A program made the translations under genes and the position numbers. A DNA stretch of 64,000 nucleotides from a virus: IMG/VR virus record IMGVR_UViG_3300005095_000008, positions 23,031-87,030 of that record; one strand, written 5' to 3'. Below are positions 1,118 through 42,820 of the stretch, piece by piece (the stretch's first letter is position 1; each line of letters starts with the position of its first letter). Under the pieces are notes generated by a model. It was not told the origin of the DNA. It made no database searches and saw only the letters and a list, made by a program, of their open reading frames with translations.

Positions 1118-1190
1118 GCTATTTTCCTTTTTAACTTTAAACTATTTAGATACTTTGTATCACCTCATAACTATGAATATAATATGTACT
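1118..1190 (-). promoter_or_regulatory. Early-promoter-like motif plus conserved 5' leader (copy 1 of 3)
   Basis: Minus strand reads TACATATTATA...GAGGTGATACAAAGTATCTAAATAGTTT...AAAAAGGA-ATG; related copies at 8506-8580 and 42746-42820. Confidence 0.7.
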
Positions 1191-1194
1191 CATA

Positions 1195-2484
1195 TTATTT
1201 TTCAATTCTATATATGTAATTAGCAATACAATTGACTAATGAACAATATAAACCGTAAACTGCATATGTTCTAGGTATTTGCCAGTTTGTATTCGCATTC
1301 TTAATGCTGTACCTGGAATCACGTATATTCATTAGTATTGTTTTGTCATCATTACACTCCGTCATATTTACAGAATACTCTTTAAATACCTCATTCGTTT
1401 CTGGTATAAATTTGTTTAATATTTTTAACGAAGGAAATATATCATTGTCCTTTTCTTCAATCTCTAATGGACCATCAGCGATATCTGTATAAGTTAAACT
1501 ACACTGTTCTGATCTAGGATATGCATCAAAGTTAAATAAGTATTTATTAGAATCATCTTTTCGCGTTTCTAAGAATAGGAACGCTTTTGATAATTTATAA
1601 TAGATGTCTGTGTTACTTAAGTGTTCTAATGTCTTTAGGTCATTCGTATTGTGATTCTTTACAAACTCCAATAACTTTTCAGTCCTTACTGTTAAAGTAT
1701 TCAATAATTCTATAAAATAAAGCGTGTGTGTTGTTAACTTATCATTATAGATTAACGTCATAACGATTAACTCTGTATATTTATGATAAGATTTTATACC
1801 TATGTAACATTCGTTATTATTGCTACGTACCTCACTTTCTGAATCATGAAATAATACATAATTAAATATACTAAAGTTATCACTAAGTATCGTATTAATA
1901 TATGCTATAATCTCTATCTTTTCTTCTATGTTTATGATTCTATCATCATAGATTTTAAAAGAGTTCTTAAATGCAATACCTAAATACTTTCTATCTATTG
2001 GTAGTATATAGTCACCAATCACTTTCTCGCAAGTCATACCTATTATTCTGTATAATATTTTAAAATAATCTAATGCGTCACGCATACTAGAAAAATCATA
2101 TTTCTCAATATCAAAATTACTGAACGTCTTTTTATCGCCCAACATATCATAAAACACTGCCTTATTCTCTATAAAAGATCCTGATGCACCCATAGCAGCA
2201 CCGCTAATGCTTCTTGAGTATAATAAAGAATTTTTCATTGTGATTTTAAGAGATTCTAGATTTATTAAGCTTTCTTCTGTTGTTATGATAATATTATTAC
2301 CAATAAATTTATTAGATTCTAAAATATTTCGAACACGTGCGATGTGTCTCGTTATGCTACTTAAGGAACCTTCTTTTGACATTAGTATTACAATAGTCAA
2401 TTCTGCGTCTTTAAGAGTGCTTTCTACGACTGTGTTAGTAACTGTACCTCTATCCTTAACAATTACAAGATTTACCTTACCCAT
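1195..2484 (-). CDS. Hypothetical protein (429 aa)
   Basis: Long ORF with AAAAGGAG RBS and upstream ACATATTATA motif (2518-2527); no motif recognised. Confidence 0.75.
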   Translation of the reverse strand: MGKVNLVIVKDRGTVTNTVVESTLKDAELTIVILMSKEGSLSSITRHIARVRNILESNKFIGNNIIITTEESLINLESLKITMKNSLLYSRSISGAAMGASGSFIENKAVFYDMLGDKKTFSNFDIEKYDFSSMRDALDYFKILYRIIGMTCEKVIGDYILPIDRKYLGIAFKNSFKIYDDRIINIEEKIEIIAYINTILSDNFSIFNYVLFHDSESEVRSNNNECYIGIKSYHKYTELIVMTLIYNDKLTTHTLYFIELLNTLTVRTEKLLEFVKNHNTNDLKTLEHLSNTDIYYKLSKAFLFLETRKDDSNKYLFNFDAYPRSEQCSLTYTDIADGPLEIEEKDNDIFPSLKILNKFIPETNEVFKEYSVNMTECNDDKTILMNIRDSRYSIKNANTNWQIPRTYAVYGLYCSLVNCIANYIYRIEK

Positions 2485-2556
2485 TTTATCTCCTTTTAAA
2501 CTATTTTAGGCTATAAATATAATATGTCTATAAACATTATTAGAAATAAAAATAGT

Positions 2557-2584
2557 CTACAGACTAGCATATGCTAGTCTGTAG
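2557..2584 (-). terminator. Perfect 28-bp palindrome/hairpin after the capsid gene
   Basis: ctacagactagcatatgctagtctgtag, 10 nt past the capsid stop, followed on the minus strand by a T-rich run. Confidence 0.75.
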
Positions 2585-2594
2585 TTAGATCACA

Positions 2595-4706
2595 TTATAC
2601 GGTATGTACGTTTTGTGGGATTTTTTTGGTAACAGTTTCGAAACCTGTTACGTCAAATTCCGCCAAGATTGGAAGAAGGTTAACGAACTCAAACGCTGGT
2701 TGGTTATAGAGTGCGTTGATTGAAGTTCCATTAATAGAACGTTTTACTTCAACAGTTGGAGTTGGAACGAATGCTCTGAATCCAAAGTTAAGTACGTTCA
2801 ACGCTTTAGAGCCAGTAGTTGGCATTACCATGATTTTGTTAATGAATTGTTTACTACCAGTAGCAACAACTTTAACATTTACATTTCCACCAAGATCAAG
2901 TGGTTGACCATCACCAGTCAATGCTGCTTTGATTTTTCTATCAGTAGCAATGATAATGGTTGGTTTAGCACCAAGATTCATGTTGGTATTTTCGAATGCG
3001 TCAAGATATCCTGAACCGTCCATCATTTCATTTACAGTCTGTGCGATTACAGCACTAATAGCACCTTTGATGTTAGCGGTGATATCTTTAGAGTTTGTAC
3101 TGTCTACCACAGTAGCAAGATCAATCTCTTTATTTGTGTAATATGGATTAACAAGATCTTTAGCAGCACCTGCTAGTTCATTTGTTACCAATTCAATACC
3201 ATTTTCAGTAGCGTTTCTTAGGAATCCTGCATACTTAAGAAGTTTGTTAATTCCAAGAACAGTACTCATTGCTCTCGCTTGGTTTCCGAAAGACTTGATT
3301 TTGTTTGCGTCATTATCAACATCTGCAGTATGGATTTGTGGCTTCAATACAGAGATTGGAGTTCTATATCCAACAGAGTAGATAGTGTTTACAGTTTCAG
3401 CAGAGAGGATATATCCAGTCTGTCTAAGGTTACTATTTGTTGCATATGCATCGACTTCATATCCGATGAATTCCATTGCATCGATAATACCTTTAACAGT
3501 AGTGAACTTAGCATCAGTTTGTGGCACTACATTTCCAGCAGCATCACGAAGTTCTAGCAACTCGAATTTACCTTTAGAAACAGATAGGTCTCCGATTTCT
3601 GTATTTCCAGAACCATAGAGTACACCACGTACTACGATGGTATGACCAGGCATATTAAGGTTATCAAGTACTGCTGATGCAGAACCATCAACTTGTTTAG
3701 TGTTATCAACAGAGATAACGAGACTGTCAGATACAAAGTTAAGAGCAATGTCTTTGCTGTGTCCAGATGCAGTTGGTACCCATCTAGCAGATGTATAACC
3801 AGATACGTTGATAACGTGAGTAGAAGTATCAGTACCATCAGTGAGTGTATAGTATACATTCTCAAGGATTACTGTGTCATCCATTGCGTCAGTGTTATCT
3901 CTAACACCTTGGCTAAGTTGCGCAGCTGTTTGAGAAATTCCCATAAGTGGTGCATCAACATCAGGTTTAATTGGTGCAGTTCTAATAGTTTCGCCTGTAA
4001 CTGTAGTATCATATGCAAGAGTATCTACGAGTACTTCTGCGTTAGTAGCGTTTAGTACAGGAACAAGTCTTGTTTTCTCACCAGCAAGAATTGAATCAGC
4101 ATCAATAAGTGCTTTAACAAGTGATACAGAGTTTCTCTTAAGTCTATCTGCAGAAGCATTACTTCTAAGGTATTGACCTTCAATTTTCTCTACAGTTGCC
4201 GCAACAGCACATCCAGACACACCTGGCTTAAGTACTACAGTTGGATAGATAGTTTCGGTAAATTCATCTTGTCTTGCCATAACCATGTTAACAGCAAAAG
4301 AGTATGGTGTGTTGCTAGATACGACTTGACCGTCGAAAGATTCCATTGCTACGAGTTGGTCGCTATAAACATCAGACTCACCAAACGCACCTGCTTGTAC
4401 TACAACTTGCTTACCAGATTCTACTGCTGGCATAACACGACGTGCTCCAATAGCAGCTGTGGTGTCTTGGTCAAGTAGTGCCCCGTATTGAGCGGCTTGG
4501 ATTTGTGCGTCTTCAAGTCCTGGTACCTCGTCTAGTGCGTCACGCACAATTTCAGATACTGTATTTGTTGCCTCTTCGACGAATGCTCCGTCTACAGAAG
4601 AGTCCTCAAGTCCTAGTGCTGCTTTTGCAACAGCTTCTGGTGCAGCAATTTCTGCAGCCTGTAGACCTTTTTTAACTTCGCCTACGATTTGTCCTAGTGA
4701 TTTCAT
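2595..4706 (-). CDS. Major capsid protein, phiKZ gp120-like
   Basis: 703 aa; acidic Ala-rich N-terminal propeptide with GLE/GLE/AME protease sites; ARQDEFTETIYPTVV and NSNLRQTG motifs of the phiKZ-type capsid family; lies two genes from a divergent DnaB as in phiKZ gp118-120. Confidence 0.88.
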   Translation of the reverse strand: MKSLGQIVGEVKKGLQAAEIAAPEAVAKAALGLEDSSVDGAFVEEATNTVSEIVRDALDEVPGLEDAQIQAAQYGALLDQDTTAAIGARRVMPAVESGKQVVVQAGAFGESDVYSDQLVAMESFDGQVVSSNTPYSFAVNMVMARQDEFTETIYPTVVLKPGVSGCAVAATVEKIEGQYLRSNASADRLKRNSVSLVKALIDADSILAGEKTRLVPVLNATNAEVLVDTLAYDTTVTGETIRTAPIKPDVDAPLMGISQTAAQLSQGVRDNTDAMDDTVILENVYYTLTDGTDTSTHVINVSGYTSARWVPTASGHSKDIALNFVSDSLVISVDNTKQVDGSASAVLDNLNMPGHTIVVRGVLYGSGNTEIGDLSVSKGKFELLELRDAAGNVVPQTDAKFTTVKGIIDAMEFIGYEVDAYATNSNLRQTGYILSAETVNTIYSVGYRTPISVLKPQIHTADVDNDANKIKSFGNQARAMSTVLGINKLLKYAGFLRNATENGIELVTNELAGAAKDLVNPYYTNKEIDLATVVDSTNSKDITANIKGAISAVIAQTVNEMMDGSGYLDAFENTNMNLGAKPTIIIATDRKIKAALTGDGQPLDLGGNVNVKVVATGSKQFINKIMVMPTTGSKALNVLNFGFRAFVPTPTVEVKRSINGTSINALYNQPAFEFVNLLPILAEFDVTGFETVTKKIPQNVHTV

Positions 4707-4756
4707 TGTTGTCCTTTTAAAGTATGTTTTTATAAAAACAAACTAACTGATTTGAA

Positions 4757-5332
4757 TCAGAGAGTAAGTGGTAAAATTTGAATAAAATCGGAAATGAATT
4801 GTGAATACTTGTTAAAGTCAGCACCATACACTTCGCTTTCTAAATTGATAAAATTTGCGAGTAGTACTCTTCTAAAGTGTTTCGGTCTAAGAACAAGTAG
4901 TTGCTCCCCTAGTTCAGTAAGTGATACTACAATGGTACCATCTGTAATGACTAGATAGAAAAGTGGCGTCTTTTTATGTAACGCGTCAACATCTTCGCAA
5001 CTTAGTAGTTCTTGACGAATATCTTTAGGAATAAAAATACTATTCATATAAATAGCAGAAGAACCAGAAACAATAGAACCAATTGCATCTATAGCTGTGA
5101 AAAGCGTGCCAATATTTTCTAGTTTATTCTCTAGTGAAAATTCTCTAAGAATAAGTGAAGTAGCATCTAACATATCAGCAATGTCTCTATGTGATACTTT
5201 ATCAGCGATTGTTTTAATAGATTCTAAATCTTTTTTCTCTAAAGAAGCCAATAGCTCAGACATTTCAATGTTTTGCGACTTGAAAGCTCTCTTAACGTGC
5301 GGAGGAACGACCATTAAATTGTATGGTTTCAT
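4757..5332 (-). CDS. Hypothetical core protein (positional equivalent of phiKZ gp119)
   Basis: Between capsid and helicase genes; AAAAGGATAC RBS. Confidence 0.6.
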   Translation of the reverse strand: MKPYNLMVVPPHVKRAFKSQNIEMSELLASLEKKDLESIKTIADKVSHRDIADMLDATSLILREFSLENKLENIGTLFTAIDAIGSIVSGSSAIYMNSIFIPKDIRQELLSCEDVDALHKKTPLFYLVITDGTIVVSLTELGEQLLVLRPKHFRRVLLANFINLESEVYGADFNKYSQFISDFIQILPLTL

Positions 5333-5441
5333 ATGTATCCTTTAATATATAGTTGTTTCAGTTAAAATGTGAGTTAAATTTATTTCTAAATATAACTTTG
5401 TATGACACCGAGATAATTGATGTATTTATAAAAGGATAAAA

Positions 5442-6947
5442 ATGAAATCATTAGACGCACTATTAATAGCAATTCGACTACTATATCTAGAAAAGACAAT
5501 CGAAAAAGAGAATGGGTCTAATAGTAAAGAGTTGGTACAAAATATACTAGACTTACTCGATAATGAAAAGAGAGCGCTCAATGGTTCTAATAAAGAGATG
5601 ATACAGAACCTTAAAGAGTATGTGCGTACATTCGTAGATATGTTTGACAAAACAGAATATGAACCAAATCTTATTAAACAGAGTCTACTACTAATTCTAG
5701 AAAACAAAGACTTAATAGAAGAACTCATTGCAGATATTACTAGAGAGTCTACCTTAGAAGAGAAACAACAAAGAATACTTCGATTAAGAAGTCTACTCTC
5801 TAGTTACTATGGTGAAGATAAACTTAAGAAGTTATTGAATAAACTCACACATGACATTAACAATAAAAGAAACAAGATTACTGATATTGAGAAGTTTAGA
5901 TTAGAAGCACTCTCGATGTTAGAAACGATTAAGTTGGGTAATGTAGAGAAAGACCCTAACATTGTAACAGAGATTGACTTGAGTGATGTAGAATCTAGTT
6001 CACAAATCATTCATGAGTTACAAGATGAAGCGAGTAGTGGTTTACTATTGAAAACTGGATTCCAAGCAATGAACAGAGTCTTAGATGGCGGTATCCGTAG
6101 AGGAGAGTTAATTACGATTACATCTCAACAGCATAAGTATAAATCTGGATTGGCTAGAAGTCTATTCATGCAGACAATGATTCATAACGTACCGAAACTG
6201 AAAGATGAAAATAAGAAACCATTAATGATTTTCATTAGTTTTGAAGATAACGCTAGATTGGTATTGAAGTTTATGTTTGAATACTTGATGAGTTCAGAAG
6301 GTAAAACAACGAAAATTATGGACGTGAGTTCTGATGATGCAGCAGCTTATATTAAAGGCGCATTAGAAGCCAATGGTTGGAATGTAAAGTTATTAGTTGT
6401 GAATCCATCTGGTTGGGGATACAAGGATATCTTTAATACTGTAGAGAAATACGAGTCTAAAGGATTTGAAGTCTTTGGATTATGTTTGGATTACTTATCA
6501 TTAGTACCTAAGATTGGCTGTATCAATAATGGTGCGACTGGTAGTGATACGAGAGACTTGTTTAGACGCGTAGGAAACTATGGTAGAGCAAGAGATATGT
6601 ATGTTATCACACCACATCAGAGTAGTAGCGGTGTGAAACTATTATTAAGAAATGGTGTAACAGATGAGGACTTAGTCAAAGAGATTTATGGTAAAGGATA
6701 CTTTGCAGATAGTAGTCAACTAGACCAAGAACATGATGTGGGTATTTTAGGACACATTGCAAAAATAGATGGAGAGTCATATCTCACATTAGCAGTAGAC
6801 AAACATAGAGGGTTTGTTATTAATCAAGAGTACGCATTCTTTAGTTATAAGTTTCCAAAGAATGAGATGCCCATTCCTCCAGATATTAATGGGAAGGATA
6901 TGAGTATTAAAGACTTAAGTGTTAGTGGAGACGATGATTTATTTTAA
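5442..6947 (+). CDS. DnaB-like replicative helicase (phiKZ gp118-like)
   Basis: KTGFQAMNRVLDGGIRRGE, phiKZ-type degenerate Walker A SQQHKYKSG, ISFED, LDYL, ITPHQ, DKHRG. Confidence 0.88.
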   Translation: MKSLDALLIAIRLLYLEKTIEKENGSNSKELVQNILDLLDNEKRALNGSNKEMIQNLKEYVRTFVDMFDKTEYEPNLIKQSLLLILENKDLIEELIADITRESTLEEKQQRILRLRSLLSSYYGEDKLKKLLNKLTHDINNKRNKITDIEKFRLEALSMLETIKLGNVEKDPNIVTEIDLSDVESSSQIIHELQDEASSGLLLKTGFQAMNRVLDGGIRRGELITITSQQHKYKSGLARSLFMQTMIHNVPKLKDENKKPLMIFISFEDNARLVLKFMFEYLMSSEGKTTKIMDVSSDDAAAYIKGALEANGWNVKLLVVNPSGWGYKDIFNTVEKYESKGFEVFGLCLDYLSLVPKIGCINNGATGSDTRDLFRRVGNYGRARDMYVITPHQSSSGVKLLLRNGVTDEDLVKEIYGKGYFADSSQLDQEHDVGILGHIAKIDGESYLTLAVDKHRGFVINQEYAFFSYKFPKNEMPIPPDINGKDMSIKDLSVSGDDDLF

Positions 6948-6965
6948 ATAAAAATAAAATAGACT

Positions 6966-6991
6966 ATGAGTAGACCATATGGTCTACTCAT
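6966..6991. terminator. Perfect 26-bp palindrome between convergent genes
   Basis: atgagtagaccatatggtctactcat between helicase (+) and the 6988-7188 ORF (-). Confidence 0.75.
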
Positions 6992-7188
6992 GTGTTTAAG
7001 TATTTCTTATACTCTTTTATCTCTTTATGGTTTATAGAACCATCCTTATTCAGAAGTCTAGAATGATACTTGAGTCTGTCGTAGAAATCTTGTTGTTTCT
7101 GAACATTTAACTCAATACATTTATAAGAGAGTTGTGTCGTGTTAAGAAGTGATGTCTCTTCTTCTAGTAAACACATTTTAGCTTTCAT
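6988..7188 (-). CDS. Small hypothetical protein
   Basis: 66 aa, GAGGAG RBS, start overlaps the upstream stop. Confidence 0.65.
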   Translation of the reverse strand: MKAKMCLLEEETSLLNTTQLSYKCIELNVQKQQDFYDRLKYHSRLLNKDGSINHKEIKEYKKYLNT

Positions 7189-7568
7189 AACAACTCCTCT
7201 TGTAAACTCTTATGCCTGCTATACAGTTCTTGCAACATTATCTTTATATTTTTTATAGCATTCGCTTTTTCTATCTCTGTATAAGTATCGTCTGTAACGA
7301 TATGTTCTATTCGTTTATTTAGTTTATCAATATCTTGACATACGCTGTTTATTTGTTCTCTAATAGAGTCTTGTTCTATCTTCATTTGCATGGCTTTGCT
7401 AATAAAGATTATTGCGGTTACAATTGTGTTTACGATTGGAACGAATACAAATAAAACATAAGTAACCTTTTCTGGTATTGATAATCCTACTTTAACCTCG
7501 TTTCTAAACGCATAGGCATTAACACCAATGCTCAAGATGTATATTAACATTAATAGACTAGTTACCAT
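7185..7568 (-). CDS. Membrane protein with two N-terminal TM helices and a coiled-coil tail
   Basis: Hydrophobic LLMLIYILSIGVNAYAF and VTYVLFVFVPIVNTIVTAIIFI; GGAGG RBS. Confidence 0.7.
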   Translation of the reverse strand: MVTSLLMLIYILSIGVNAYAFRNEVKVGLSIPEKVTYVLFVFVPIVNTIVTAIIFISKAMQMKIEQDSIREQINSVCQDIDKLNKRIEHIVTDDTYTEIEKANAIKNIKIMLQELYSRHKSLQEELL

Positions 7569-8505
7569 TACTTACCTCCTCTGGTGAAGGAATTATACAG
7601 TCTAAAACAAGACGCTCTAGATTTCCTTTAACAGGAATAGAGAATCCTGCAGCAAGTTTATGACCACCGCCTTTATAGACTTTAGCAATATCACTCACGT
7701 CAACATCTCCGACACCTCTTAAAGAGATTACGATGAATGGTTCACCATTCTCATCTTCAGAGATAAACCACTGGCCGCTTATACCAGACGGGTGTTCTCT
7801 AGCAATCTTATTACCAACCTCACTGATAAACTCATGATTGTTAATCATGCCAATAACAGTACCGTTAACATTAACATCTTTGACTTTATCAATATTCCCA
7901 ATCTTATCGACTAGCTCTTCTTTATACTCCACACGAACGGTAGTAACGTCATTGATGAATTGTTTGACGTCATGAATATCAAATTCATCTAGGTCGAATA
8001 GGTTATTTGGTCTAACAAGTTTTTTAAAGCCTTCTGTAAAAGCATGCGTATCTTGTAAGTCATGTAACCACAAGTCTCTATCCTTAATGTATGTAAGACA
8101 CGCAGGAACGTTTTTGTCGCCACTCAAGACTTTATATGTTAACGTAGCTCCAGATTCATTCACATCGAACCACACATTGTCAAGTCCATTAAGTTCTTTT
8201 TGTGCAGTAATGTGGTGGTCAATAACGACTACTTTTTTAGCTACTTTATAAATAGCTTCCATTTCGTCTCGTTTAAGAGAGAAATCTGTAAACAGTACAT
8301 ACTTATCTCTAAACGCATCTACAGTTAATTCAAACGCACCATACTGCGCAAAGTAAACAGAATCATCTAACATACCAGGACTAAGGCCTATTACCTCTGC
8401 CAATGCCCAGACAGATCCCATTCCGTCTGAACAATTCTTATGCGTGACAATAATCAAATTATCACTCATCAATGCTGTTTTAATTTCTCTAGCTAAATTT
8501 GTCAT
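7558..8505 (-). CDS. DHH/DHHA1 family phosphoesterase
   Basis: HKNCSDG, TDFS, IDHH, DRDLW and C-terminal GGGHKLAAGF motifs. Confidence 0.9.
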   Translation of the reverse strand: MTNLAREIKTALMSDNLIIVTHKNCSDGMGSVWALAEVIGLSPGMLDDSVYFAQYGAFELTVDAFRDKYVLFTDFSLKRDEMEAIYKVAKKVVVIDHHITAQKELNGLDNVWFDVNESGATLTYKVLSGDKNVPACLTYIKDRDLWLHDLQDTHAFTEGFKKLVRPNNLFDLDEFDIHDVKQFINDVTTVRVEYKEELVDKIGNIDKVKDVNVNGTVIGMINNHEFISEVGNKIAREHPSGISGQWFISEDENGEPFIVISLRGVGDVDVSDIAKVYKGGGHKLAAGFSIPVKGNLERLVLDCIIPSPEEVSNGN

Positions 8506-8580
8506 GTGTTCTCCTTTATTTTAGAACTATTTTAAATTAATACATTGTTGTATCACCTCTAGACTAAATATATAATATAT
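8506..8580 (-). promoter_or_regulatory. Early-promoter-like motif plus conserved 5' leader (copy 2)
   Basis: Minus strand ATATATTATA...TAGTCTAGAGGTGATACAACAATGTATT...AAATAGTT...AAAGGAG-ATG. Confidence 0.65.
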
Positions 8581-8605
8581 AAATAAAAAAAGTTTTATTA
8601 TACAA

Positions 8606-8627
8606 GCATGAGTCGTACGACTCATGC
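8606..8627 (-). terminator. Perfect 22-bp palindrome
   Basis: gcatgagtcgtacgactcatgc just after the stop of 8632-8850. Confidence 0.65.
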
Positions 8628-8631
8628 CTGC

Positions 8632-8850
8632 TTATCTCATTGATAACAACCGTTCAATACTATCTTCTATTAAAACGTATAGAAGAATTAATGTAATAGC
8701 AATATTAAATGGCGGTACTAATACTGCTAATATAACAAGATAATATTCATTCTTAGGAATATAACAACCGCCTCTGCATGTAAAATACCAATATAACATG
8801 TTAAACATAGCAGACACTACCAACAAAACTACTATAGTATTTATTTCCAT
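8632..8850 (-). CDS. Small two-TM membrane protein
   Basis: 72 aa, two hydrophobic stretches, AAAAGGAT RBS. Confidence 0.65.
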   Translation of the reverse strand: MEINTIVVLLVVSAMFNMLYWYFTCRGGCYIPKNEYYLVILAVLVPPFNIAITLILLYVLIEDSIERLLSMR

Positions 8851-8934
8851 TTTCGATCCTTTTTTAGTATTACATTTAAAAGTATGTATGTTATTTTTTA
8901 TTAAGTTTTATTGAAATCACAATGAAGGTATAAA

Positions 8935-9423: not shown

Positions 9424-9444
9424 CTTAATTAAGCTAGATGTAAT
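9413..9444. terminator. Perfect 32-bp palindrome spanning two convergent stop codons
   Basis: attacatctagcttaattaagctagatgtaat overlaps the ends of 8935-9423(+) and 9429-9779(-). Confidence 0.75.
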
Positions 9445-9779: not shown

Positions 9780-9844
9780 TCGTTTACTCCTATTACATAC
9801 ATACAGTTTATAAAGTCATTTAAAACATATCAACTTGACGTTTT

Positions 9845-11002: not shown

Positions 11003-11054
11003 TGTTACTCCTTTTTATTTAACTATGTAACTAATGATATAATATGTAAATAAA

Positions 11055-11462: not shown

Positions 11463-11508
11463 ACTTAACCTTTTTTTTATTTTTAATTCATTTAAGATAA
11501 AAAAGTAG

Positions 11509-11536: not shown

Positions 11537-11541
11537 TAAGA

Positions 11542-14681: not shown

Positions 14682-14682
14682 C

Positions 14683-18098: not shown

Positions 18099-20360
18099 CT
18101 AAACCTTACAACTTTCACATTCTACTTCATCGTTCTTTGTAGATTTTGCATAGTAGAGTCCTTTCATACCAAGTCTATCTGCTGTGAGAATATCTCTCAA
18201 TAGATCAAATGCGGTTGTCTTCTCTGGTATATAATAAAGTGTTACACTCTGTCCTTGGTCTAACCAACGTTGTCTTACAGCTGCATTAGTTAAAATATCA
18301 TTAGAATCGATATCAAATGCAAGTTCATACTTGTGTCCTAGTGTCGCTACATTTGGCGCTAACTGTGGACAAGTATATGTGCCATCTTTCATAGCTGATA
18401 ACGCATGTAGTGGTTCTGTACCTTCTGTAGAGTTCATAATGAGTGAACTCGTAGCAGTAGGCGCAATCGCCATCACTGTTGAGAATCTAGCGCCACATGC
18501 CAATAGATCTTGACGTAGTGTTTCCCAATCATAATTGAGTGGATATTCAACATCTCCTGCAAATAATTCAAATGTGAACTTTCCATCTTTATATTTTGTT
18601 TCGTTAAACTTCTTAAACCTGCCTCTCTCTTTAGCGAGTCTAATTGATGCTTTCATTAGATGGTAATAGACTGATTCCATTACATCATTCACAAACTGTA
18701 ATGTATCTTCACCACCCCATTTTAAAGTGTTTTTAGCAAGTAATTGCGCGAGGTTTGTTACACCTACACCAATCGCTCTAAACTCTTTGTTAAATCGTTC
18801 CCCTTCTTTCGTAGGATAAAACGCATAGTCAATGAGATTATCAGATGCTCTTAGTAGATTATACGCAATACGTTCTCTCTTTTCGTCATCATGGTAAAAC
18901 CAACGCATAAGGTTAATAGAACTAAGATTACAGAGTGCGATATAACCAGGTTCATACTCTTCTGTAAGCGTAACTTCATCGGTAGACATATTTTCAGAAA
19001 GTTCGAAGTCTTTGAATTCTACAGCTTTTGTAGGAAGATAGATTTCATTACAGAGATTAGAGCTGTAGATCTTATGATTAAAGTTATTTTGCTTCTCTAC
19101 ATTCTCTTCTAAGAAGATATAGATATTACCTGTTTCGAATCTTTGTTTTACGAGTTCGAATAGATAGTCAAGTGCATTGACTGTTTTCTTCATAATGCCT
19201 TGTTTCTTCTCGTACTCTTCATAGAGCGTATTGAATGCTTCGCCAGTAGTCTCTTCTAATAGAGGTACTTCTTTAGGATCAAAGAGTGTCATCTCTTGAT
19301 CGTTGAGTGCTCTCTCTAAAAAGAGTTTATTAATCTTGACACCATACATAAGTCCTCTAGCACGTCTATCTTCTGTACCACCCTCTTCTTTAAGCTCAAG
19401 CATATCAGGAGCATCATAGTGCCATAGAGAGAAGTAGACTGCACACGCACCGGGTCTGGTTCCATCTTGGTTATAGGCTTTTACGCCTGCTTCTGTAAGC
19501 TTAATGAATGGAATTGGTCCAGAAGAAGTTCCTGTTGTTCCAATAAGAGAATTTGACGCTCTTACAGAAGTAATATCTGTAGCGAGTCCACCAGAGTGTT
19601 TTGAATACAAGAACAAGTTAGAGTTAGTCTTATTGATTCCTCTAGAGTTATCTGGCATCTTAGAGACGACACAGGATGACATCTGTGGATTGTACGAGAG
19701 TGAGTTTTTAAACTTTGGTGTGGCTTCAGAGAACTCATGTTGAGATACATCATCATAACGTTCTTTAATTAGAGCCATTCTGACGTCTTTTGGTTCTTTC
19801 CAGAAGGCGAACATAGCCAAACGCATGAAACCGTGTTGAGGTAGCTCTAGGATACGTTTACGAGTATATCTTTTCGCTTGCTTGTCGAAGAATACCCTAA
19901 GACCAAGATAATTAATATCGAAATCTCTCTCTTGTACGATATAAGAGTTTAATTCGATGATTTCTTGTTCTGAAAACGAGTTTACTACTTCTTTATCATA
20001 GACTTTATATTTCACACCTTTTTTAAGGACATCTCCATAGAATGGATATTTATCTCTTTTCATTCCCCATAGTTCTTTATACTGTTTTAGAATTAGTAGG
20101 TTTCGAGCAACGGTATCTGCTAAAGGAAACTCTTTAGAAATCATATTCTCTACAGTGTTTAGTACTTCATTATAGAGTTTTGTGATTTGGATCTTATCAT
20201 AGATTTTGAGTTTGACACTTTTGAGTATCTCTTCTACCATGATTTCATTATTTTCAGCCGCCCACATCAATACTTTATGCAACTTCTCTTCGCTAAATGG
20301 TTCTGTTCTTCCGTCACGTTTAATAACTGTGTGACTTTTGCCATCCATAAGTGTTATCAT
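18099..20360 (-). CDS. nrdA: Ribonucleotide reductase class Ia alpha subunit
   Basis: ATP cone VIKRDGRTEPF, SSCVV, SNLCNEI, LCNLSS, APTATSS, GLYY, C-terminal CESC; start at MITLMD (AAAGGAA RBS). Confidence 0.95.
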   Translation of the reverse strand: MITLMDGKSHTVIKRDGRTEPFSEEKLHKVLMWAAENNEIMVEEILKSVKLKIYDKIQITKLYNEVLNTVENMISKEFPLADTVARNLLILKQYKELWGMKRDKYPFYGDVLKKGVKYKVYDKEVVNSFSEQEIIELNSYIVQERDFDINYLGLRVFFDKQAKRYTRKRILELPQHGFMRLAMFAFWKEPKDVRMALIKERYDDVSQHEFSEATPKFKNSLSYNPQMSSCVVSKMPDNSRGINKTNSNLFLYSKHSGGLATDITSVRASNSLIGTTGTSSGPIPFIKLTEAGVKAYNQDGTRPGACAVYFSLWHYDAPDMLELKEEGGTEDRRARGLMYGVKINKLFLERALNDQEMTLFDPKEVPLLEETTGEAFNTLYEEYEKKQGIMKKTVNALDYLFELVKQRFETGNIYIFLEENVEKQNNFNHKIYSSNLCNEIYLPTKAVEFKDFELSENMSTDEVTLTEEYEPGYIALCNLSSINLMRWFYHDDEKRERIAYNLLRASDNLIDYAFYPTKEGERFNKEFRAIGVGVTNLAQLLAKNTLKWGGEDTLQFVNDVMESVYYHLMKASIRLAKERGRFKKFNETKYKDGKFTFELFAGDVEYPLNYDWETLRQDLLACGARFSTVMAIAPTATSSLIMNSTEGTEPLHALSAMKDGTYTCPQLAPNVATLGHKYELAFDIDSNDILTNAAVRQRWLDQGQSVTLYYIPEKTTAFDLLRDILTADRLGMKGLYYAKSTKNDEVECESCKV

Positions 20361-26452: not shown

Positions 26453-26466
26453 CTTTTATCCTTTTT

Positions 26467-27003
26467 TTATTTATTTTTTAACAGTTTAGACATCTGATCT
26501 GTTTTATTTTTACTACCTACTGATGAACCGACCCAAAATGATACAACCATAATAATTACTGTTTTTATAAACTCTATCGTGTTCTGAACAATAGGCCTAT
26601 TTACATCTAATAGATCTGTAAATGATGCTAAGAACAAGTAACCAAATCCAATAAACAAGATTACTAAACTTAAAATAGGAACGAATCGTGTAAGAAATTT
26701 ATCATCACTCGTGGCTAAAAATTCTGTTAGTTCTCTAGCATCTTCAAAATCATCAGTCTCGATAATGTCATAGTCTTTAAATGTTAAATCTAATTCTTTT
26801 AACGTGTCTGAATCAATACTCTTTAAAAACTGCACGTCATCTTCTGTTAATTTATATTCTTCATCAGTGATGTCAATTTTATACTTAGAAGATACATATG
26901 TTAAAAAATCTTTCTCTTCTAACTCTTCCATTTTTTCATAAATATCATGCAGTACGTAATAGAGTTCATTATCGCGCAGCTGCTTCATTATATTCTTATA
27001 CAT
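26467..27003 (-). CDS. Holin-like membrane protein
   Basis: Soluble acidic N-terminus, two TM helices, ending VVSFWVGSSVGSKNK as in 3TM/GTA-type holins. Confidence 0.55.
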   Translation of the reverse strand: MYKNIMKQLRDNELYYVLHDIYEKMEELEEKDFLTYVSSKYKIDITDEEYKLTEDDVQFLKSIDSDTLKELDLTFKDYDIIETDDFEDARELTEFLATSDDKFLTRFVPILSLVILFIGFGYLFLASFTDLLDVNRPIVQNTIEFIKTVIIMVVSFWVGSSVGSKNKTDQMSKLLKNK

Positions 27004-27039
27004 AAATATCCTTTTTTAATGTATTTCAACTAAACATTA

Positions 27040-27069
27040 CTATAGAGTACCATATGGTACTCTATAGGT
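27040..27069. repeat. Palindromic terminator; identical 30-bp direct repeat with 32556-32585
   Basis: ctatagagtaccatatggtactctataggt at both positions. Confidence 0.85.
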
Positions 27070-32486: not shown

Positions 32487-32555
32487 TATTGTATCCTTTT
32501 TTATATTTATAGTGGTTAAACTAATTCAATAAAATGGTCTATGAACCAAAATACG

Positions 32556-32585
32556 CTATAGAGTACCATATGGTACTCTATAGGT
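32556..32585. repeat. Palindromic terminator; identical 30-bp direct repeat with 27040-27069
   Basis: Same sequence directly after the stop of fibre 2. Confidence 0.85.
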
Positions 32586-35500
32586 TAATTGTTTTCTAGT
32601 TCTTCGATTCTAGATGTAAGGTCATTGATGACTGATAGCAGTTCTGAAATTGTTTTTTGTTGTTGTTCTACTTTTTCATCTAGCTCTTGAAGTGCTTTTG
32701 TAAGAACTGGAATCATGGCTGTTTCAGTAATGATAAGTCTTTCTTTATTCTTATCTTTTACTATTACATTTTCACCAAAGTATTCTAATTCTTTCTCAAG
32801 CACTTCTTGTGCACCAAACCCATAATGCTTTATAGTATCTTTTTTGGTACCATCAGGTTTTCTATCTTCGTATCTAAATCTATCATCATAGACATACGAT
32901 ATTGGTCTAAGTTCTTTTACAAATTCCAATGATGATGGTAATGTTTCTATATCTGTTTTATCTCGTAAGTCAGATGGTGTATCCCATTGAACTTTACACA
33001 GAGCAGATGTGATGTTAGCATTACCCATAATGATTTGGTTATCATCTAAGATATCAAAATCACCTTGACCATCACCTGCTTGATAACCGATCGCAATAGA
33101 GTTTGTAACTGTTACTTCTTCTTCTGGACCAACATCATTACCAATAAACACACATTCAACAAGATCAAGACATGTATTCGCAGACCAATGTCCTATTACA
33201 ACGCTATCTTTATAATAAGAGTTTTTAGACATAGTGTTAGTACCTATCGCAATATTGTGCTGCGAGAAGTATGGTGTTTTTAAAGCGTTAGATCCGATTG
33301 CGATATTATTATAGTGCGCGTCTACATATCTGTTATTATCAGAGTCAGTCGGTTCTGGTGTTGGACTATAAAATGCATAATCGCCAATGGCGATATTCTT
33401 AGAGCTATCATTACCATCAACTCCTGGAGCCATCATACCCATTGCGTATGCGCCAACAGCCGTATTAAACTGTTGTATAGCGTCAGATGTGCCTGTGTAT
33501 GATAATGCATGATAGCCAATAGCAATTGCATAGCTTAGTATATTTGCATTTAATCCTGCGTTAAGACCAATAAAAGAGTCATAATAACTTACGTCAATGA
33601 TTGGTTCGATAGATCCTGCCATGTATTTTAAACGCCGACTTGATAATATAAGCTCACTATCGTAGGAATCATTTAACGTTATAGAAAACGTACTTGTGTC
33701 TGTACCGATGCCATTATTCGCAATAATCTCTCCACCAAAATACGATGGAAAATTACCATCGATATATATACCGTATATCTTGCTTGTATTAGAGCTATAT
33801 GTAGAATTACCATAAAACATAGCTGCTGTTCCAAAATCTCCAGAATCAGAATCAATGTTTATAGTCGACATATAACCAGCTAATATATCGCTTGTAGCGT
33901 ATTCTGAATCTATTTGAATTTTAGATCTAAACCCGCTTATGGTGTCAGCGCCATTATCATATGCATTATCATCATCATCTGATTTAGAGAAATAGTCAAT
34001 ATCAATAAGAACATCATTTCCTATAAGAACACCAGAGTGTTTACTTCTAGGGTCTTTATTTAACGATACCTTAGACCCATAGAAATTTGTTATTTCGTTA
34101 AAGTCTAAACATGTTGTCGTAAATTGTGTTCCTATCAAACTTGTTATGACCGATGCGTTAGATGATGCTGACAAACTTAACATTGTTTCATAAGAATTTT
34201 CTTTTCTAGCGTCATAAGATATTGTTAAAGGACCTCCTAAATATGAAAATGCTGTTGACGGTAAATATAAGTTATATGCTATCGATGGTGTGTTCGTCTC
34301 ATATCTACCTTCATATAAGGCGTAAATGTTATTAGCGTCATCGTATGTGATATTAATACGAGAAGAATGTCCATACGCTTCTGTATAGATATTTTCTGGG
34401 TTCTGTACATCTAAACTTGAGACTGTTCCTACTATACTTTCAGCATCATTTCTGCCAGTATCAGCAATATCCTGAACTCTTACCACATTATATGCGCCCC
34501 ATAATTTACCACTAAGAGACGGATTTACTGATTTTATTACTTCTGATTTGCTTCCAATAAAAACACCGTCATCATAACTACTTGTTAATAGATCAATTTT
34601 AGAATATGTTGCGACCGTCTCAGTGTACACTTGAGCATCTGACTCGATAGTAAGTTTGTTATTAATCCCAAAAACATTTTCACACGACATTGCTTCTAAT
34701 ACAGTTTCATTTAGTATCGTATTTGCCGCAGTCAAATCCGTAGCGAATTTAGTATATTTCTTATATGCGTTAACAGTTAGTGTGTTACTGTTTAATGTTG
34801 TATCAGGAGAGTATGAATTAAAATTATAGGTAATGTTATGTATTGTATCTTCACTAATATCTACTGTACCATTATCACAATTAAAAATGATAGATTGTGC
34901 CGTGCTCGAGTCCGATGCAAACTCGTAATCAAGCGTTCCGCTATCAGTAACAGAACTATCTGAACCAACAACATCGCCTTCTAAAAGAATGCGTTTATCG
35001 TTAATTGTCCAGTAATCTCCATTATCACCATCATTCCTCCATTTTAACGAACTAAATGACGTACTGTTATCTTTAGGTGTTATTTCAAAAATTGGGTCAA
35101 CGTCATATAAGTTAAGATATATACGCAAATCATTATTTGACGCGCCCTTCAATGTTATTTCGTTACGACGAATTGTAGTGCGTTTATCGTCTTCCATACC
35201 TATCGTTAAAGTAGTATCGTTATACATATAGACATTATTTGTACTATCAAATATTAATCTATCAATTCCATTATTCGCCATTGCAAAGAAACCAGTCGTG
35301 TTAATTCTTGAAGACGTGTTTCTAAAATCAATATCCTTTGGAATAGACATGGTATCTGTAGTAAACTCATATCTATACGCTATAGCGCCATCTGCTTGCA
35401 GACCTGGGTTAATAACTATATTACCATCAGCTGTAACTAAATTGTACTCTGACGTAATCTCTTCTACCGTATCAAAGCCTAAATCTGTCGCTAAATCTAG

Positions 35501-38707: not shown

Positions 38708-38761
38708 GACCGTATCCTTTTTACTGTAAGTTATAGTCTATAGACTAATTCAATAAAACAA

Positions 38762-38794
38762 CTCACTACCAATCCAAAACGGATTGGTAGTGAG
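38762..38794 (-). terminator. Hairpin with 14-bp arms
   Basis: ctcactaccaatcc-aaaac-ggattggtagtgag, then TTGTTTT on the minus strand. Confidence 0.75.
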
Positions 38795-38805
38795 GACATT
38801 TTGTC

Positions 38806-39759: not shown

Positions 39760-39777
39760 AGCGTCTCCGATCTTCAA

Positions 39778-40649
39778 GTTTGATTTTGACTAAGTTATCA
39801 AACAAAGGAATTTTTGAAGAATTTTATTTCTCACACAAAAGAACTCTTGGCAAATTTATTCTCTAGGTCATCAGACCATCCTCATCAAACAATTTTCAAA
39901 ATTCTCTTACTATAAATCGCGCGGTCACGCGTGTGCGTGTGCGCGGTTCAAAGATAATATTTAATAATAAATTATTAAATATATTATATAAATATATCAA
40001 AGATATTAATTATCTAAATTAATAAATTAATTTATCTAATTAAATAACAACTAAAGAATAATATATATACTTAAAGAAAAAGAAAAAGACTCTATGTATA
40101 TATATATTAACGTAGTTAATATATATATACATAGAGTCCAAAAGAAAAAGAATTTTTTTAGAAAAAAAAATTCTAAAAATCTCTATTTAGTGATGAGTCA
40201 AAAGGATTTCTGAAAGAGAAATCCGTTGAAAATTTAGAGAAAATAAAAAATCTAAAGAATGTCTATTTAGTGAATCTCTCGAATTAGAAAAGATAAAATT
40301 GAGAAATGAAATTTCGAAAGTTTAGATTTGAGAATGAGAGAACAGAAGTCAAACTGAATTTAGAGTGTCGAATCGACACTCGATGATTTTGACTCTAGAT
40401 GTGAAAATAGTATTAAAATAGTAGAATTATAAATTGAGTATATAATTTAGTATATGTTTAAATTAACAGAATGGTATCTAGAATCCATTTTCATAGGCTT
40501 ACTAATATGAAGACATAGGTGAAGTACTTAAAACGATTTAAGGGTGATTTTTAAGAGTAGTGATTTAAAGTGAAATCGTTGACAGATATTTGTTTTTATT
40601 CGTTCAAAAGTTTCTTCTTTTGAATAAAAACAAATATAAAAAACAAGAG
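39778..40649. other. Large non-coding region, candidate replication origin or other cis-acting locus
   Basis: Longest intergenic gap in the window; CG/TG alternating tract 39926-39945, 44-nt pure A/T run 39954-39997, 24-bp-arm inverted repeat 40088-40138, further hairpins. Confidence 0.55.
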
Positions 40650-40680
40650 ATAGATACAGACCAAAATGGTCTGTATCTAT
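40650..40680 (-). terminator. Hairpin with 14-bp arms
   Basis: atagatacagacca-aaa-tggtctgtatctat abutting the stop at 40681, followed by CTCTTGTTTTTT on the minus strand. Confidence 0.78.
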
Positions 40681-41118
40681 TTAAACTTTTAAGTCTAATC
40701 TGTTAACTTGTTGCATAATGATTGTTTCTGATGTTCTAAAGATATCTGCTAAAACGAGAGAATCTAGTGTTTTTCTATCATAAACGACTTCTTTTAATTT
40801 ATCTCCTGGAATGAGAATATCGAGTGCTTTTCCTTTTAATTCAGAGATTTCTGTATTAAGTACGTCAAAATCTGAAGATGTGACTGTGAGTGGTTCAAAT
40901 ATAGTTACGGTGTCATCTGGAGGAGGTATTACTGTTAAGAGATGAGCCACTACGAAGGTTTGAAGGGTTTCTTCGAGATCTTCTTTAATCTTAAGTAGAT
41001 ACCCTCCGTCAGACTCTTCGATAGTACCATAGGTATCATCAGAGAAAGTGGTATAATCAAGTGTAGCGTTGTTGTCTGTGAGTAGTGTATCAAAATCGGT
41101 ACAGAAGTTACAAGCCAT
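40681..41118 (-). CDS. ImmA/IrrE (DUF955)-like protein lacking the HExxH motif, paralogue 1
   Basis: DDTYGTI..SDGGYLLKI, QTFVVAHLL (cf. RQRFTIAHELGH), ALDILIP (cf. AAELLMP), LADIFRTSE (cf. LA.IF.VS); N-terminal CNFC. Confidence 0.7.
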   Translation of the reverse strand: MACNFCTDFDTLLTDNNATLDYTTFSDDTYGTIEESDGGYLLKIKEDLEETLQTFVVAHLLTVIPPPDDTVTIFEPLTVTSSDFDVLNTEISELKGKALDILIPGDKLKEVVYDRKTLDSLVLADIFRTSETIIMQQVNRLDLKV

Positions 41119-41184
41119 ATGTAATCCTTTAATGTGTATTCAGTAGATAGAAGAAAAAGAAAACACAGAGGGAATGTACTCCCT

Positions 41185-41616
41185 CTATGATGGTTTAATG
41201 TCTATAATATCTAGATAAAATAATACCATATTCTCAGTGACTCTGAAGAGGTCTGCTAAGATTGCAATATCTTTGACATCTTTATCAAGCATAAGATATT
41301 TGAGTTTAACATCAGGCATGAGCGTAGACGCGACTTTGAGATTGAGTTCTTCTGTTTCTTCGTTGTTTAGCTTCAGTCTGTCTGCTGTATATACAAACAT
41401 CTCTATATCAGGATTGTCTAGCATATGATATAACACATGCAAGATAATAAACTTTTGAACTTCTTCTGATTTATTGGTGTTCACATTGATGATGAGTTCA
41501 TCATTGAGTATACGGTCAGCAGTAGCAATTGCGTTATCTGGTAACTCTACATATTCTACCGTAGCATTGTGTTCTTGTAGAATAGCAGCTACATCTGTGC
41601 AAAATTTACAGCTCAT
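41185..41616 (-). CDS. ImmA/IrrE (DUF955)-like protein with catalytic Glu replaced, paralogue 2
   Basis: IINVNTNKSEEVQKFIILHVLYH, VASTLMP, LADLFRVTE; N-terminal CKFC. Confidence 0.75.
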   Translation of the reverse strand: MSCKFCTDVAAILQEHNATVEYVELPDNAIATADRILNDELIINVNTNKSEEVQKFIILHVLYHMLDNPDIEMFVYTADRLKLNNEETEELNLKVASTLMPDVKLKYLMLDKDVKDIAILADLFRVTENMVLFYLDIIDIKPS

Positions 41617-41912
41617 GAATACTCCTCTAGTGTTTGTGTTTTGTCGTCTAGTATGAATAGACGAATATTGTTTTCAGAAGCTTGTTTGATAAACCATGCA
41701 GTATGGTAATTGTTGTACACGTTTTTAGAGACAACAATTGCATCTCCAACAATTAATCTGCATCTATCTTCAAATTCTGATGAAGATAGAATATAATCTT
41801 CATGTATGCCATACTCTAGACAGGCTTCTTCGATTGCGGGTGTGTCTGTGATACACCAGAGAATAGCTGTCTCTGATGCGTTATATTCTTCACATAGTTC
41901 TTCTAACAACAT
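41613..41912 (-). CDS. Acidic hypothetical protein
   Basis: 99 aa, overlaps both neighbours in an operon. Confidence 0.6.
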   Translation of the reverse strand: MLLEELCEEYNASETAILWCITDTPAIEEACLEYGIHEDYILSSSEFEDRCRLIVGDAIVVSKNVYNNYHTAWFIKQASENNIRLFILDDKTQTLEEYS

Positions 41913-42745
41913 TGGTTGCCCTTTACGTATCTTCCAGAGATATATGGATTTTGTTGCATACTGAGATTTGCTTGGTTAATTGCATTACCATAACGTGGGT
42001 CAACAGGTGCTCCATATTGGTAGTTAAAAGGCTGGTTTACATTTTGTAAACATTGTTGATGTTGTTGTGTATAGTATGGTTCAGTACTCATTGCAGTGAT
42101 GTTATTGATCGCTTTATAAACTAGCGCGAGTCTATCTACCAACTCTTTCTTTAATTCTGGATCTAACATAACATTTTCGAATCCATTAGGATTGAATCCG
42201 TTATTAGTTAAATACATAAAGTATTTATAGTTAGATCCAGTGAGTGTGGTTGTCTTAACAATTTCAGTACCGCCTTTTGTTTCGAATTCAACTACATTAT
42301 TCGACATGATACGGAATTCACTGGTTTCATTTCTTTTGCCAGAAATCTCTAGTATGAGTGAAGATACTGCTATGATATCCCCACAACCCATATTAGATGT
42401 ATATGAACCACTCTTAACATTGATGTTAAGATTCTTATTGTCAGTACAAGAGATAACATATGGAGCATATATATTATCCATTACCTCTTTAGCTGTTTCA
42501 GAGAATGGTTCGATTTTAACATTCTTAAATACTTTGTTTACTTCGTCATAATCAAAGTACTCTTGTGGGTTTGGCAATAAGATAGTATTTGATTTGTATG
42601 CATATACATCATCTTTTATAATTAAACTATGTGTTGATAGAAAATTATCTGGTAACTCAACGTACTTCTTATTTACATCAGTTTCATTATCTATACCGCA
42701 CTCTGCTACTAAACCTTTATTCTTTACGAAAAAGTATTTTTTCAT
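41903..42745 (-). CDS. Hypothetical protein with Q/N/Y-rich C-terminal tail
   Basis: 280 aa; first gene behind leader copy 3. Confidence 0.75.
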   Translation of the reverse strand: MKKYFFVKNKGLVAECGIDNETDVNKKYVELPDNFLSTHSLIIKDDVYAYKSNTILLPNPQEYFDYDEVNKVFKNVKIEPFSETAKEVMDNIYAPYVISCTDNKNLNINVKSGSYTSNMGCGDIIAVSSLILEISGKRNETSEFRIMSNNVVEFETKGGTEIVKTTTLTGSNYKYFMYLTNNGFNPNGFENVMLDPELKKELVDRLALVYKAINNITAMSTEPYYTQQHQQCLQNVNQPFNYQYGAPVDPRYGNAINQANLSMQQNPYISGRYVKGNQCC

Positions 42746-42820
42746 TGTTTGTCCTTTTTTCTTTTAAACTATTTAGATACATTTCTGTATCACCTCTAGA
42801 CTAGTAATATAATATGTATA
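42746..42820 (-). promoter_or_regulatory. Early-promoter-like motif plus conserved 5' leader (copy 3)
   Basis: Minus strand TACATATTATATTACTAGTCTAGAGGTGATACAGAAATGTATCTAAATAGTTT...AAAGGAC-ATG. Confidence 0.7.

Follow-up and report, generated by a model that had tools for sequence, protein, structure and literature searches.

The c4 antisense RNA of phages P1 and P7 pairs through target boxes in the icd-ant leader, with one of its segments covering the ribosome-binding site (RBS), and the RsaE/RoxS and RNAIII hairpins of Bacillota use unpaired C/U-rich loops to pair with purine-rich messenger RNA (mRNA) sequences that resemble Shine-Dalgarno (SD) sequences. A 5'-terminal protective stem-loop of the aprE/ermC type is a stable hairpin located within a few nucleotides (nt) of the 5' end. 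A stabilizing SD (STAB-SD) is described as a sequence of SD type, close to the 5' end, to which the 30S subunit binds and which blocks RNase J1 (PMC4113751), c4 itself is mentioned in PMC12197685, and the differential RNA sequencing (dRNA-seq) account of phiKZ gives one predicted small RNA (sRNA), which was not confirmed there (PMC8244752). Here we analyze a window of 64,000 nt, positions 23031-87030 of the single 87,030-bp virus contig IMGVR_UViG_3300005095_000008 (34% G+C; hereafter G000), in which three leaders, S1, S2 and S3, carry close to their predicted 5' ends a purine tag directly followed by a short hairpin. We give roughly even odds (a probability of about 0.5) to the reading that this tag is a docking, or seed, site for a structured sRNA encoded by the same phage.

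Like c4, the candidate sRNA of G000 would be a phage-encoded structured small RNA with short, separate segments complementary to a phage mRNA leader, one of them over the RBS. Unlike c4, it appears to have its own early promoter and terminator in a lytic phiKZ-like phage and several unlinked candidate targets, and one of the target segments, a tag with its hairpin, occupies the very 5' end of the leader and precedes the RBS by ~35-40 nt. It would differ from the RsaE/RoxS and RNAIII hairpins in being phage-encoded and in having a loop that reads as a literal copy of the 16S-tail motif and complements an upstream tag in addition to RBSs. Particular to the module is its dedicated 5' tag and hairpin, separate from the RBS. 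In a limited literature search, we found no account of a jumbo phage in which an early sRNA pairs with a tag in a leader.

By its gene content, G000 is a fragment of a deep-branching phiKZ-like jumbo phage, because it encodes both a phiKZ-type major capsid protein (phrog_3231; 199 phage records by tblastn, each below 60% identity, the best at 30%) and a split RNA polymerase (RNAP) beta-like subunit (phrog_3015). Identity to the capsid protein and RNAP of cultured phages does not exceed 30%. Nearly all genes of the contig lie on the minus strand, and IMG/VR estimates its completeness at 32%.

The initial annotation had reported one common layout in front of an AAA ATPase gene, a DHH gene and a hypothetical gene. 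All three leaders were found where it had placed them, all on the minus strand, and family matches bear out the gene identities: AAA_5 ATPase for S1, DHH plus DHHA1 phosphoesterase for S2, and a 280-amino-acid (aa) protein without a family for S3. From 5' to 3', each leader consists of ATATTAT-N6-AGT-N3-GAGGTGATAC, the hairpin, AAATAGTT, AAAGGA(G) and ATG. The individual features, in window coordinates, are as follows.

1115 to 1187, minus strand: S1 unit of the AAA_5 ATPase gene, with promoter core ACATATTAT at 1187-1179, N6, predicted +1 A at 1172 (placed from the AR9 consensus) and ATG at 1117-1115
1157 to 1166, minus strand: S1 tag GAGGTGATAC, at +7 to +16, exact complement of sRNA positions 155-164
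1149 to 1161, minus strand: S1 hairpin GATAC-AAA-GTATC, predicted by folding at -2.8 kcal/mol
1140 to 1147, minus strand: S1 AAATAGTT box; the sRNA tail, 205-225, contains complements of TCTAAATAGTTT (12 nt) and of TTAAAAAGGA (10 nt, SD)
8503 to 8580, minus strand: S2 unit of the DHH/DHHA1 gene, with promoter ATATATTAT at 8580-8572, predicted +1 A at 8565 and ATG at 8505-8503
8550 to 8559, minus strand: S2 tag GAGGTGATAC
8539 to 8554, minus strand: S2 hairpin G-ATACA-ACAA-TGTAT-T; an AUG in its 3' arm starts a 2-codon mini open reading frame (ORF)
8525 to 8532, minus strand: S2 AAATAGTT box
42743 to 42817, minus strand: S3 unit of the 280-aa gene, with promoter ACATATTAT at 42817-42809, predicted +1 A at 42802 and ATG at 42745-42743
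42787 to 42796, minus strand: S3 tag GAGGTGATAC
42776 to 42791, minus strand: S3 hairpin G-ATACA-GAAA-TGTAT-C; an AUG in its 3' arm starts a 21-codon out-of-frame upstream ORF (uORF)
42767 to 42774, minus strand: S3 AAATAGTT box inside TCTAAATAGTTT, which complements the sRNA tail

The exact 10-mer GAGGTGATAC occurs three times in the window, whereas 100 dinucleotide shuffles average 0.12 and none of them reached three; the 29-nt promoter-plus-tag pattern has three matches against 0.00 expected. With at most one mismatch allowed, the 10-mer is found seven times (2.86 expected; 4 of 100 shuffles reach seven), and the AAATAGTT box by itself is not enriched (13 matches versus 8.06 expected; 8 of 100 shuffles reach 13). 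A fourth exact GAGGTGATAC lies outside the window at contig position 5837, in the opposite orientation and inside the sRNA gene. The tag octamer GAGGUGAU is an 8-nt complement of the 16S-tail motif AUCACCUCC and lies ~35-40 nt upstream of the true RBS, AAAGGA(G), which is the weaker of the two; the 16S motif is the generally known one and may not be that of the host. The three leaders are near-identical over ~60 nt. In three short leaders of the ATnnnT-AG... promoter sub-class (window 2527, 11047 and 62012), AGCCTA, AGTTAC or AGTCTA runs directly into box and RBS, and from this comparison the module reads as an 18-21 nt insert, tag plus hairpin, in an otherwise common short early leader. These module-free leaders of the same promoter class are:

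2485 to 2527, minus strand: AGCCTA-AAATAGTTTAAAAGGAG
11003 to 11047, minus strand: AGTTAC-ATAGTTAAATAAAAAGGAG
61983 to 62012, minus strand: AGTCTA-ACTAAACTAAAAGGAG, with the same AGTCTA start as S2 and S3

The promoter in front of S1-S3, A[CT]ATATTAT-N6-A/G or its GTATATTAT variant, has 11 intergenic minus-strand copies on the 87-kb contig, plus one at the sRNA locus, and reads as a phage-specific early motif. In the form ACATATTAT-N6-A/G, it matches the early type of the AR9 virion RNAP, whose consensus AAATATATATTAT-(6N)-G+1 is tied to 41 mapped starts; phiKZ and phiR1-37 start 6 nt past their own consensus, and the same AR9 transcriptome paper mentions a predicted motif in early untranslated regions (PMC5312081). 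G000 thus resembles the AR9/phiKZ type in the core ATATTAT, in a start 6 nt downstream and in its split multisubunit RNAP genes (phrog_3015). No AR9 early promoter has CCTCC 7-37 nt downstream. By analogy with AR9, we infer that S1-S3 start at the A at window 1172, 8565 and 42802, that is, 6 nt upstream of the tag, which would place the tag at +7 and the module at about +7 to +27 of the mRNA. In line with such a start, strong predicted helices begin exactly at the predicted +1 of the leader at window -2450, of three leaders (L084, L098 and L103) of a distant relative described below, and of the closing stems of both candidate sRNAs. Because the start by analogy lies upstream of the octamer and helices begin at the predicted +1, the element appears to lie in the RNA. 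A sigma-70 promoter was rejected by inspection, with no scan made: TTGAAA stands 17 nt ahead of TTATAT in S1, but a comparable -35 is lacking in S2 and S3.

The candidate sRNA that matches these leaders runs on the minus strand from contig position 6000 to 5725, 17,030-17,305 nt before the window start. Its promoter, GCATATTAT-TATTAT-G, is a paralogue of the S1 promoter, both with upstream GAATTGAAAAATAAT. The predicted fold of the 276 nt has an energy of -85.4 kcal/mol (z = -7.56; 0 of 200 shuffles as stable), with a closing stem that starts at +1. Within this fold, one hairpin has the loop UCUUCCUUUUG and another a 12-nt apical loop, UCACCUCCACUU, which is a copy of the 16S-tail motif and which, together with four stem bases, is the exact complement of GAGGUGAUAC. 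Specifically, GUAUCACCUC at sRNA 155-164 lies in and beside the 12-nt loop, which is predicted to be more than 0.9 unpaired. A second unpaired stretch is complementary to the AAAUAGUUU box, and AAACUAUUUA is predicted to be unpaired. The closing stem is followed on its 3' side by a free tail, ACUCCUUUUUAAAACUAUUUAGAAG, and then by a terminator hairpin with a U-run. The tail complements the box and the true SD. The exact complements amount to 10 nt for all three tags, 12 nt for TCTAAATAGTTT (S1 and S3) and 10 nt for TTAAAAAGGA of S1. The 5' end of the sRNA, GAGGCGTCTAGAG, resembles the S2/S3 start, AGTCTAGAGG.

The same locus is present in a near-identical strain, found in runs X1 and X2 of one study from 2025, whose contigs are ~98% identical to G000 (183 differences in 9,544 bases). 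Its sRNA locus has 12 substitutions and three deletions, with none in the anti-tag, the anti-box or the tail. Seven substitutions fall at unpaired positions; of the four at paired positions, three turn G.U into Watson-Crick pairs and one breaks a weak 4-bp helix. Run X3, labelled 'epibiont metagenome' (2019), yields mostly short contigs at 90-99% identity, a hint of habitat and not evidence of the host.

A distant relative, G001, a 164,797-bp IMG/VR contig, was reached through an alignment of DHH homologues and shares 49% identity with G000 in DHH, 27% in the major capsid protein and 28% in the RNAP beta-like subunit. Its early promoter, TATATTAT-TAnAGT, has 22 copies on the minus (reverse) strand and none on the plus strand, compared with one and one for the control. 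Our set comprises 21 leaders, excluding L083 (contig end, leader shorter than 70 nt) and L093 and L094 (AATATTAT, coding-like). In 6/21 leaders, (G)G...YTTAGGTG is followed directly by a hairpin and then TAA/TAT; in two others, TTAGGTGT pairs back to a 5' ACAC, and one has a TTAGTG variant. The stems vary from copy to copy (GTATC/GATAC, GTTAT/ATAAC, GTGTC/GACAT and GCT/AGC). Of the conserved tag (G)GCUUAGGUG, the part able to pair with the 16S tail is limited to AGGUG, and 8-11 nt match the phage's own sRNA. Against the 85 ORFs of the G000 contig, blastp (E<1e-3) gave no homologue of any gene that follows a G001 module, so the module is not tied to orthologous genes. One module leader, L095 (C1 ~32975-33001), precedes a 481-aa protein whose N-terminus we take to be chaperonin-like.

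G001 has four copies of CACCTAA on the transcribed strand, one of them in a 205-nt gap between two genes, directly after an early promoter, TATATATTAT-TGATAT-G. This is the site of its candidate sRNA (143597-143458; 140 nt; predicted -40.2 kcal/mol, z = -5.27), which is predicted to consist of a closing stem from +1, a hairpin with the anti-SD loop UUUUCCUCCUUUUA, an unpaired linker AAGACACCUAAGCCAAAAUA and a terminator. CACCUAAGCC of the linker plus one flanking base forms an 11-nt exact complement of the leader sequence GGCTTAGGTGT, and 8-9 nt match six other leaders. Both loci thus have the attributes of an RNA gene, namely an early promoter, a stable predicted fold and an end in a hairpin plus U-run; no Rfam family reaches its gathering score at either of them or at the S1-S3 leaders. 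Against a threshold of at least 7 nt, complementarity between accessible parts of sRNA and target is 10 nt, exact, in G000 and 8-11 nt in G001. The G001 linker and the G000 loop are each predicted to be more than 0.9 unpaired, and the order of segments in both sRNAs permits simultaneous antiparallel pairing of tag and RBS.

The matches were compared with shuffled sRNAs and between the two phages. In G000, a complement of at least 10 nt within +1 to +22 is found in 3/11 leaders, which 1 of 3000 sRNA shuffles reaches; in G001, a complement of at least 8 nt within +1 to +25 is found in 9/21 leaders and in none of 3000 shuffles, two of the nine being SD or AT-rich matches in short leaders. The tag matches only the sRNA of the same phage, whereas SD matches occur both ways. 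Consistently, the duplex energy of the G000 leaders is -17.3 to -17.4 kcal/mol with their own segment and -7.3 kcal/mol with that of the other phage, and that of the G001 leaders is -13.9 to -22.0 versus -5.2 to -16.1 kcal/mol. The segment of the phage's own sRNA is the stronger in 12/12 module leaders, and leaders without the module reach at best -9.3 (G000) and -11.8 kcal/mol (G001). Tag and sRNA therefore change together between the two lineages. Duplex folding of whole sequences was dropped, as it gave meaningless long duplexes.

In folded leaders, only the hairpin forms consistently, and GAGGU is unpaired. The loops AAA, ACAA and GAAA are as the initial annotation gave them. The three stems of G000 are nearly identical, so within this phage the pairing shows conservation and not covariation. 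A comparison of G000 with G001 does indicate covariation. In an alignment of nine hairpins, three from G000 and six from G001, with ten cells set aside owing to gap placement by MAFFT, standard pairs occupy 35/35 scorable cells (100%) versus 67.7% in shuffles; both sides change in three of five pairs, the covariation score is reached by 0 of 500 shuffles, and slid controls are at most 59% paired. The core conserved across both phages is AGGTG, whose final G opens the stem. A covariance model, the check that the initial annotation had suggested, was built from S1 and four G001 copies, longer windows being misaligned by MAFFT. Scanned over G000 and G001, it recovered its training sequences and, weakly, one more known copy, with its other matches inside coding sequence; it did not find S2 or S3 at E<=10, and none of 50 further IMG/VR records with a DHH gene gave a match. 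As a detector the model is of little use, being too small and too tight.

On this evidence we propose that the tag may serve as the docking site of the phage's own sRNA. A docking site is the most economical account because the tag differs between the phages and each phage's sRNA shows the matching complement beside anti-SD stretches. In such a mechanism, the module, an unpaired purine tag with a directly adjoining short hairpin, would sit on three early mRNAs of the virion-RNAP type, and the phage would transcribe the sRNA from the same promoter class as its targets. The sRNA loop would touch the tag first, and pairing would then extend onto the box and the RBS. The outcome would be control of translation, decay or both in a subset of early messages, with repression through masking of the RBS as the simplest possibility.

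Several observations weigh against this proposal. A CACCUCC loop matches any SD-like sequence, and an sRNA locus that was a mere inverted copy of a leader would give the same complementarity. Four of the 10 nt of tag pairing in G000 sit in stems of both partners (AUAC and GUAU), so that only GAGGUG and CACCUC are predicted free on both together. With the cost of opening taken into account, the top single-site energies fall to modest values (-8.6, -6.8 and -6.3 kcal/mol), and S3, S1 and S2 rank 4th, 9th and 13th of 83 upstream regions by accessibility-corrected energy. Leaders within one genome are paralogues that share the motif, and the shuffle tests thus amount to one event per phage. The comparison covers two lineages and one near-identical strain, and at the ~4% divergence of that strain, zero changes in 44 functional nt is weak evidence, about two being expected. 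The sRNA and its targets would be driven by the same class of early promoter, which leaves no obvious logic of timing. Unlike those of G000, the early leaders of AR9 are short, AT-rich and free of the module in all eight examined (first 50 kb).

The alternative with the best standing is one that the initial annotation had raised, a 5' stabiliser or ribosome-loading element, and we consider it unlikely. In its STAB-SD-like form, a 30S subunit parked on GAGGUGAU near the 5' end would, together with the hairpin, block a 5'-to-3' exonuclease of the RNase J type. The placement of the element in the RNA suits this idea, as does an octamer that is predicted unpaired 6 nt from the predicted 5' end and is stronger than the true RBSs; additionally, in S2 and S3 an AUG lies 8 nt past GAGGUG, so an initiation complex could form. 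Complementarity to 16S as the constraint on the tag is weakened, however, by G001, whose tag can pair with 5 nt of the 16S tail (AGGUG) while its conserved flanks, GGCUU, match the phage sRNA. Under a 16S constraint, a mixture of SD variants would be predicted and not a single fixed tag in each phage; the octamer has its last G and its AU inside the hairpin, and S1 has no start codon after the tag. The hairpins are also weak, from -2.8 (S1) to about -6 kcal/mol (S3 centroid -5.9, the hairpin alone), and whole-leader folding is no better than in shuffles (z = +0.63, -1.18 and -1.21). Being weak and starting 11-12 nt from the predicted 5' end (+11/+12), they would make poor 5'-terminal blocks and do not resemble the aprE/ermC type. 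Compared with the STAB-SD of cry3A, the module has a tag that is fused to a hairpin, fixed per phage and matched by a cognate phage RNA with the exact complement, and in G001 it keeps only those 5 nt of 16S complementarity.

Parking of the 30S subunit may nevertheless coexist with sRNA binding, both competing for the tag. Because the sRNA loop copies AUCACCUCC, the 30S subunit and the sRNA could compete there, and in a more specific version the sRNA would be a private mimic of the 16S tail, some early messages would carry a decoy SD and hairpin in cis, and 30S and mimic would compete for them. We hold this version to be unlikely as well.

A binding site for a phage factor had been the other alternative of the initial annotation. 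It comes closer to our reading, except that the best candidate factor is an RNA and not a protein. A protein could recognize single-stranded AGGUG plus hairpin in the RNA, as a translational operator or a signal for sorting or export, or it could be a regulator that binds DNA at four sites in this genome. An invariant AGGTG joined to a hairpin of variable sequence is the typical layout of a protein-RNA operator, the fourth 10-mer in the sRNA gene could equally be used by a binder of double-stranded DNA, and mRNA export from the early infection vesicle and the phage nucleus is named as an open question in a 2025 review (PMC12908238). On the other hand, nothing about an operator would lead one to expect the matching complement, together with its flanks, in the sRNA of each phage. 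A palindromic DNA operator is further opposed by arms whose spacing varies in G000 (3 or 6 nt) and whose sequence varies in G001, and the site in the sRNA gene, inverted and at +155 in G000 or ~+45 in G001, is not operator-like. We therefore judge a protein site improbable.

A functionless duplicated promoter-leader cassette, with the inverted copy at the sRNA locus as a recombination product that holds a chance SD-like word, is very improbable. It would explain the near-identity of the leaders over ~60 nt and the upstream GAATTGAAAAATAAT common to the S1 and sRNA promoters, and no close relative was found in which purifying selection on S1-S3 could be tested; yet a phage whose core proteins are 27-28% identical has the same layout in other letters with compensated stems, and loop lengths differ among copies while pairing is kept. 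An upstream mini-ORF driven by GAGGUG to modulate the main ORF can be set aside as scarcely credible: S2 has AUG-UAU-UAA and the S3 uORF overlaps the main start, both AUGs lying 8 nt past GAGGUG, but S1 has no start codon there, among the G001 module leaders inspected (no systematic tally) only L086a clearly has an ATG, 5 nt downstream of the tag, and the AUG arises incidentally from an extra A-U stem pair.

Searches for further relatives covered phage genomes, IMG/VR and metagenomes. Megablast of window 1-8000 against phages gave no match, DHH, AAA and the major capsid protein, each scanned singly against IMG/VR, gave no relatives, the RNAP alignment returned G001 itself only, and a scan of JGI metagenomes with the major capsid protein found none. 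The leader pattern had two chance matches in IMG/VR, in high-GC coding DNA, and the promoter-plus-tag pattern had two unrelated matches in metagenomes. The G001-type promoter-plus-tag pattern matched 18 stretches in IMG/VR, four in G001 and 14 in apparently unrelated coding sequence.

Other features of the contig were recorded alongside. The RBS region AGCAAAAGGA of a 226-aa gene outside the window (contig 18759-19439; window -3591) is a 10-nt exact complement of the first sRNA loop and has the best accessibility-corrected energy among the 83 upstream regions, -16.3 kcal/mol; it may be another sRNA target. The short leader at window 62012 begins with GTCTAACTA, which complements a different hairpin loop of the sRNA (sRNA ~65-73) over 9 nt. 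The early leader at window -2450 (contig 20580) is of another kind and strongly structured: a GACUC-UUCG-GAGUC hairpin starts at the predicted +1, and two further palindromic hairpins come after it. The S2-tagged gene (window 7558-8505, minus strand) encodes an NrnA-like DHH/DHHA1 phosphoesterase, possibly an RNA-end or nanoRNA-processing enzyme. The only Rfam family to reach its gathering score is the group I intron RF00028 (window 49948-50227, minus strand; 92.5 bits, E 2.6e-22), which adjoins the RNAP-like genes. Upstream of two giant genes, whose products of 1805 and 2040 aa have tail-spike-like C-termini, lies a common motif, TTTTATTGAATTAGT(T/C)TA, at window 32487-32584 and 38708-38805 (minus strand), a candidate late or middle promoter; ATTGAAT-like words also occur upstream of further non-early genes. 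An identical perfect palindrome, CTATAGAGTACCATATGGTACTCTATAG, lies 3' of two different genes (window 26460-27068 and 32487-32584, minus strand), and many other terminator-like intergenic hairpins have CATATG-type centres. Finally, window 39778-40680 is a 903-nt AT-rich gap free of ORFs, with promoter-like words on both strands.

phiKZ-like phages transcribe in closed compartments, and the regulation of their early messages after synthesis is largely unknown. If docking is real, a leader tag and a phage-encoded mimic of the 16S tail that have changed together would form a compact post-transcriptional circuit within the early regulon. It would also provide a search rule, a private tag near +7 together with its complement in an early non-coding RNA, and the pair is small (~20 nt and 140-276 nt), which suits reporters without the host. 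Were the 30S subunit and the sRNA to compete for the tag, the module would be a three-way switch for storing messages that leave the early infection vesicle, shielding them from 5' decay or from host RNA-targeting defences, or timing their release. Such a circuit would amount to an RNA-based sorting or hand-off step in phages where transcription and translation are physically separated.

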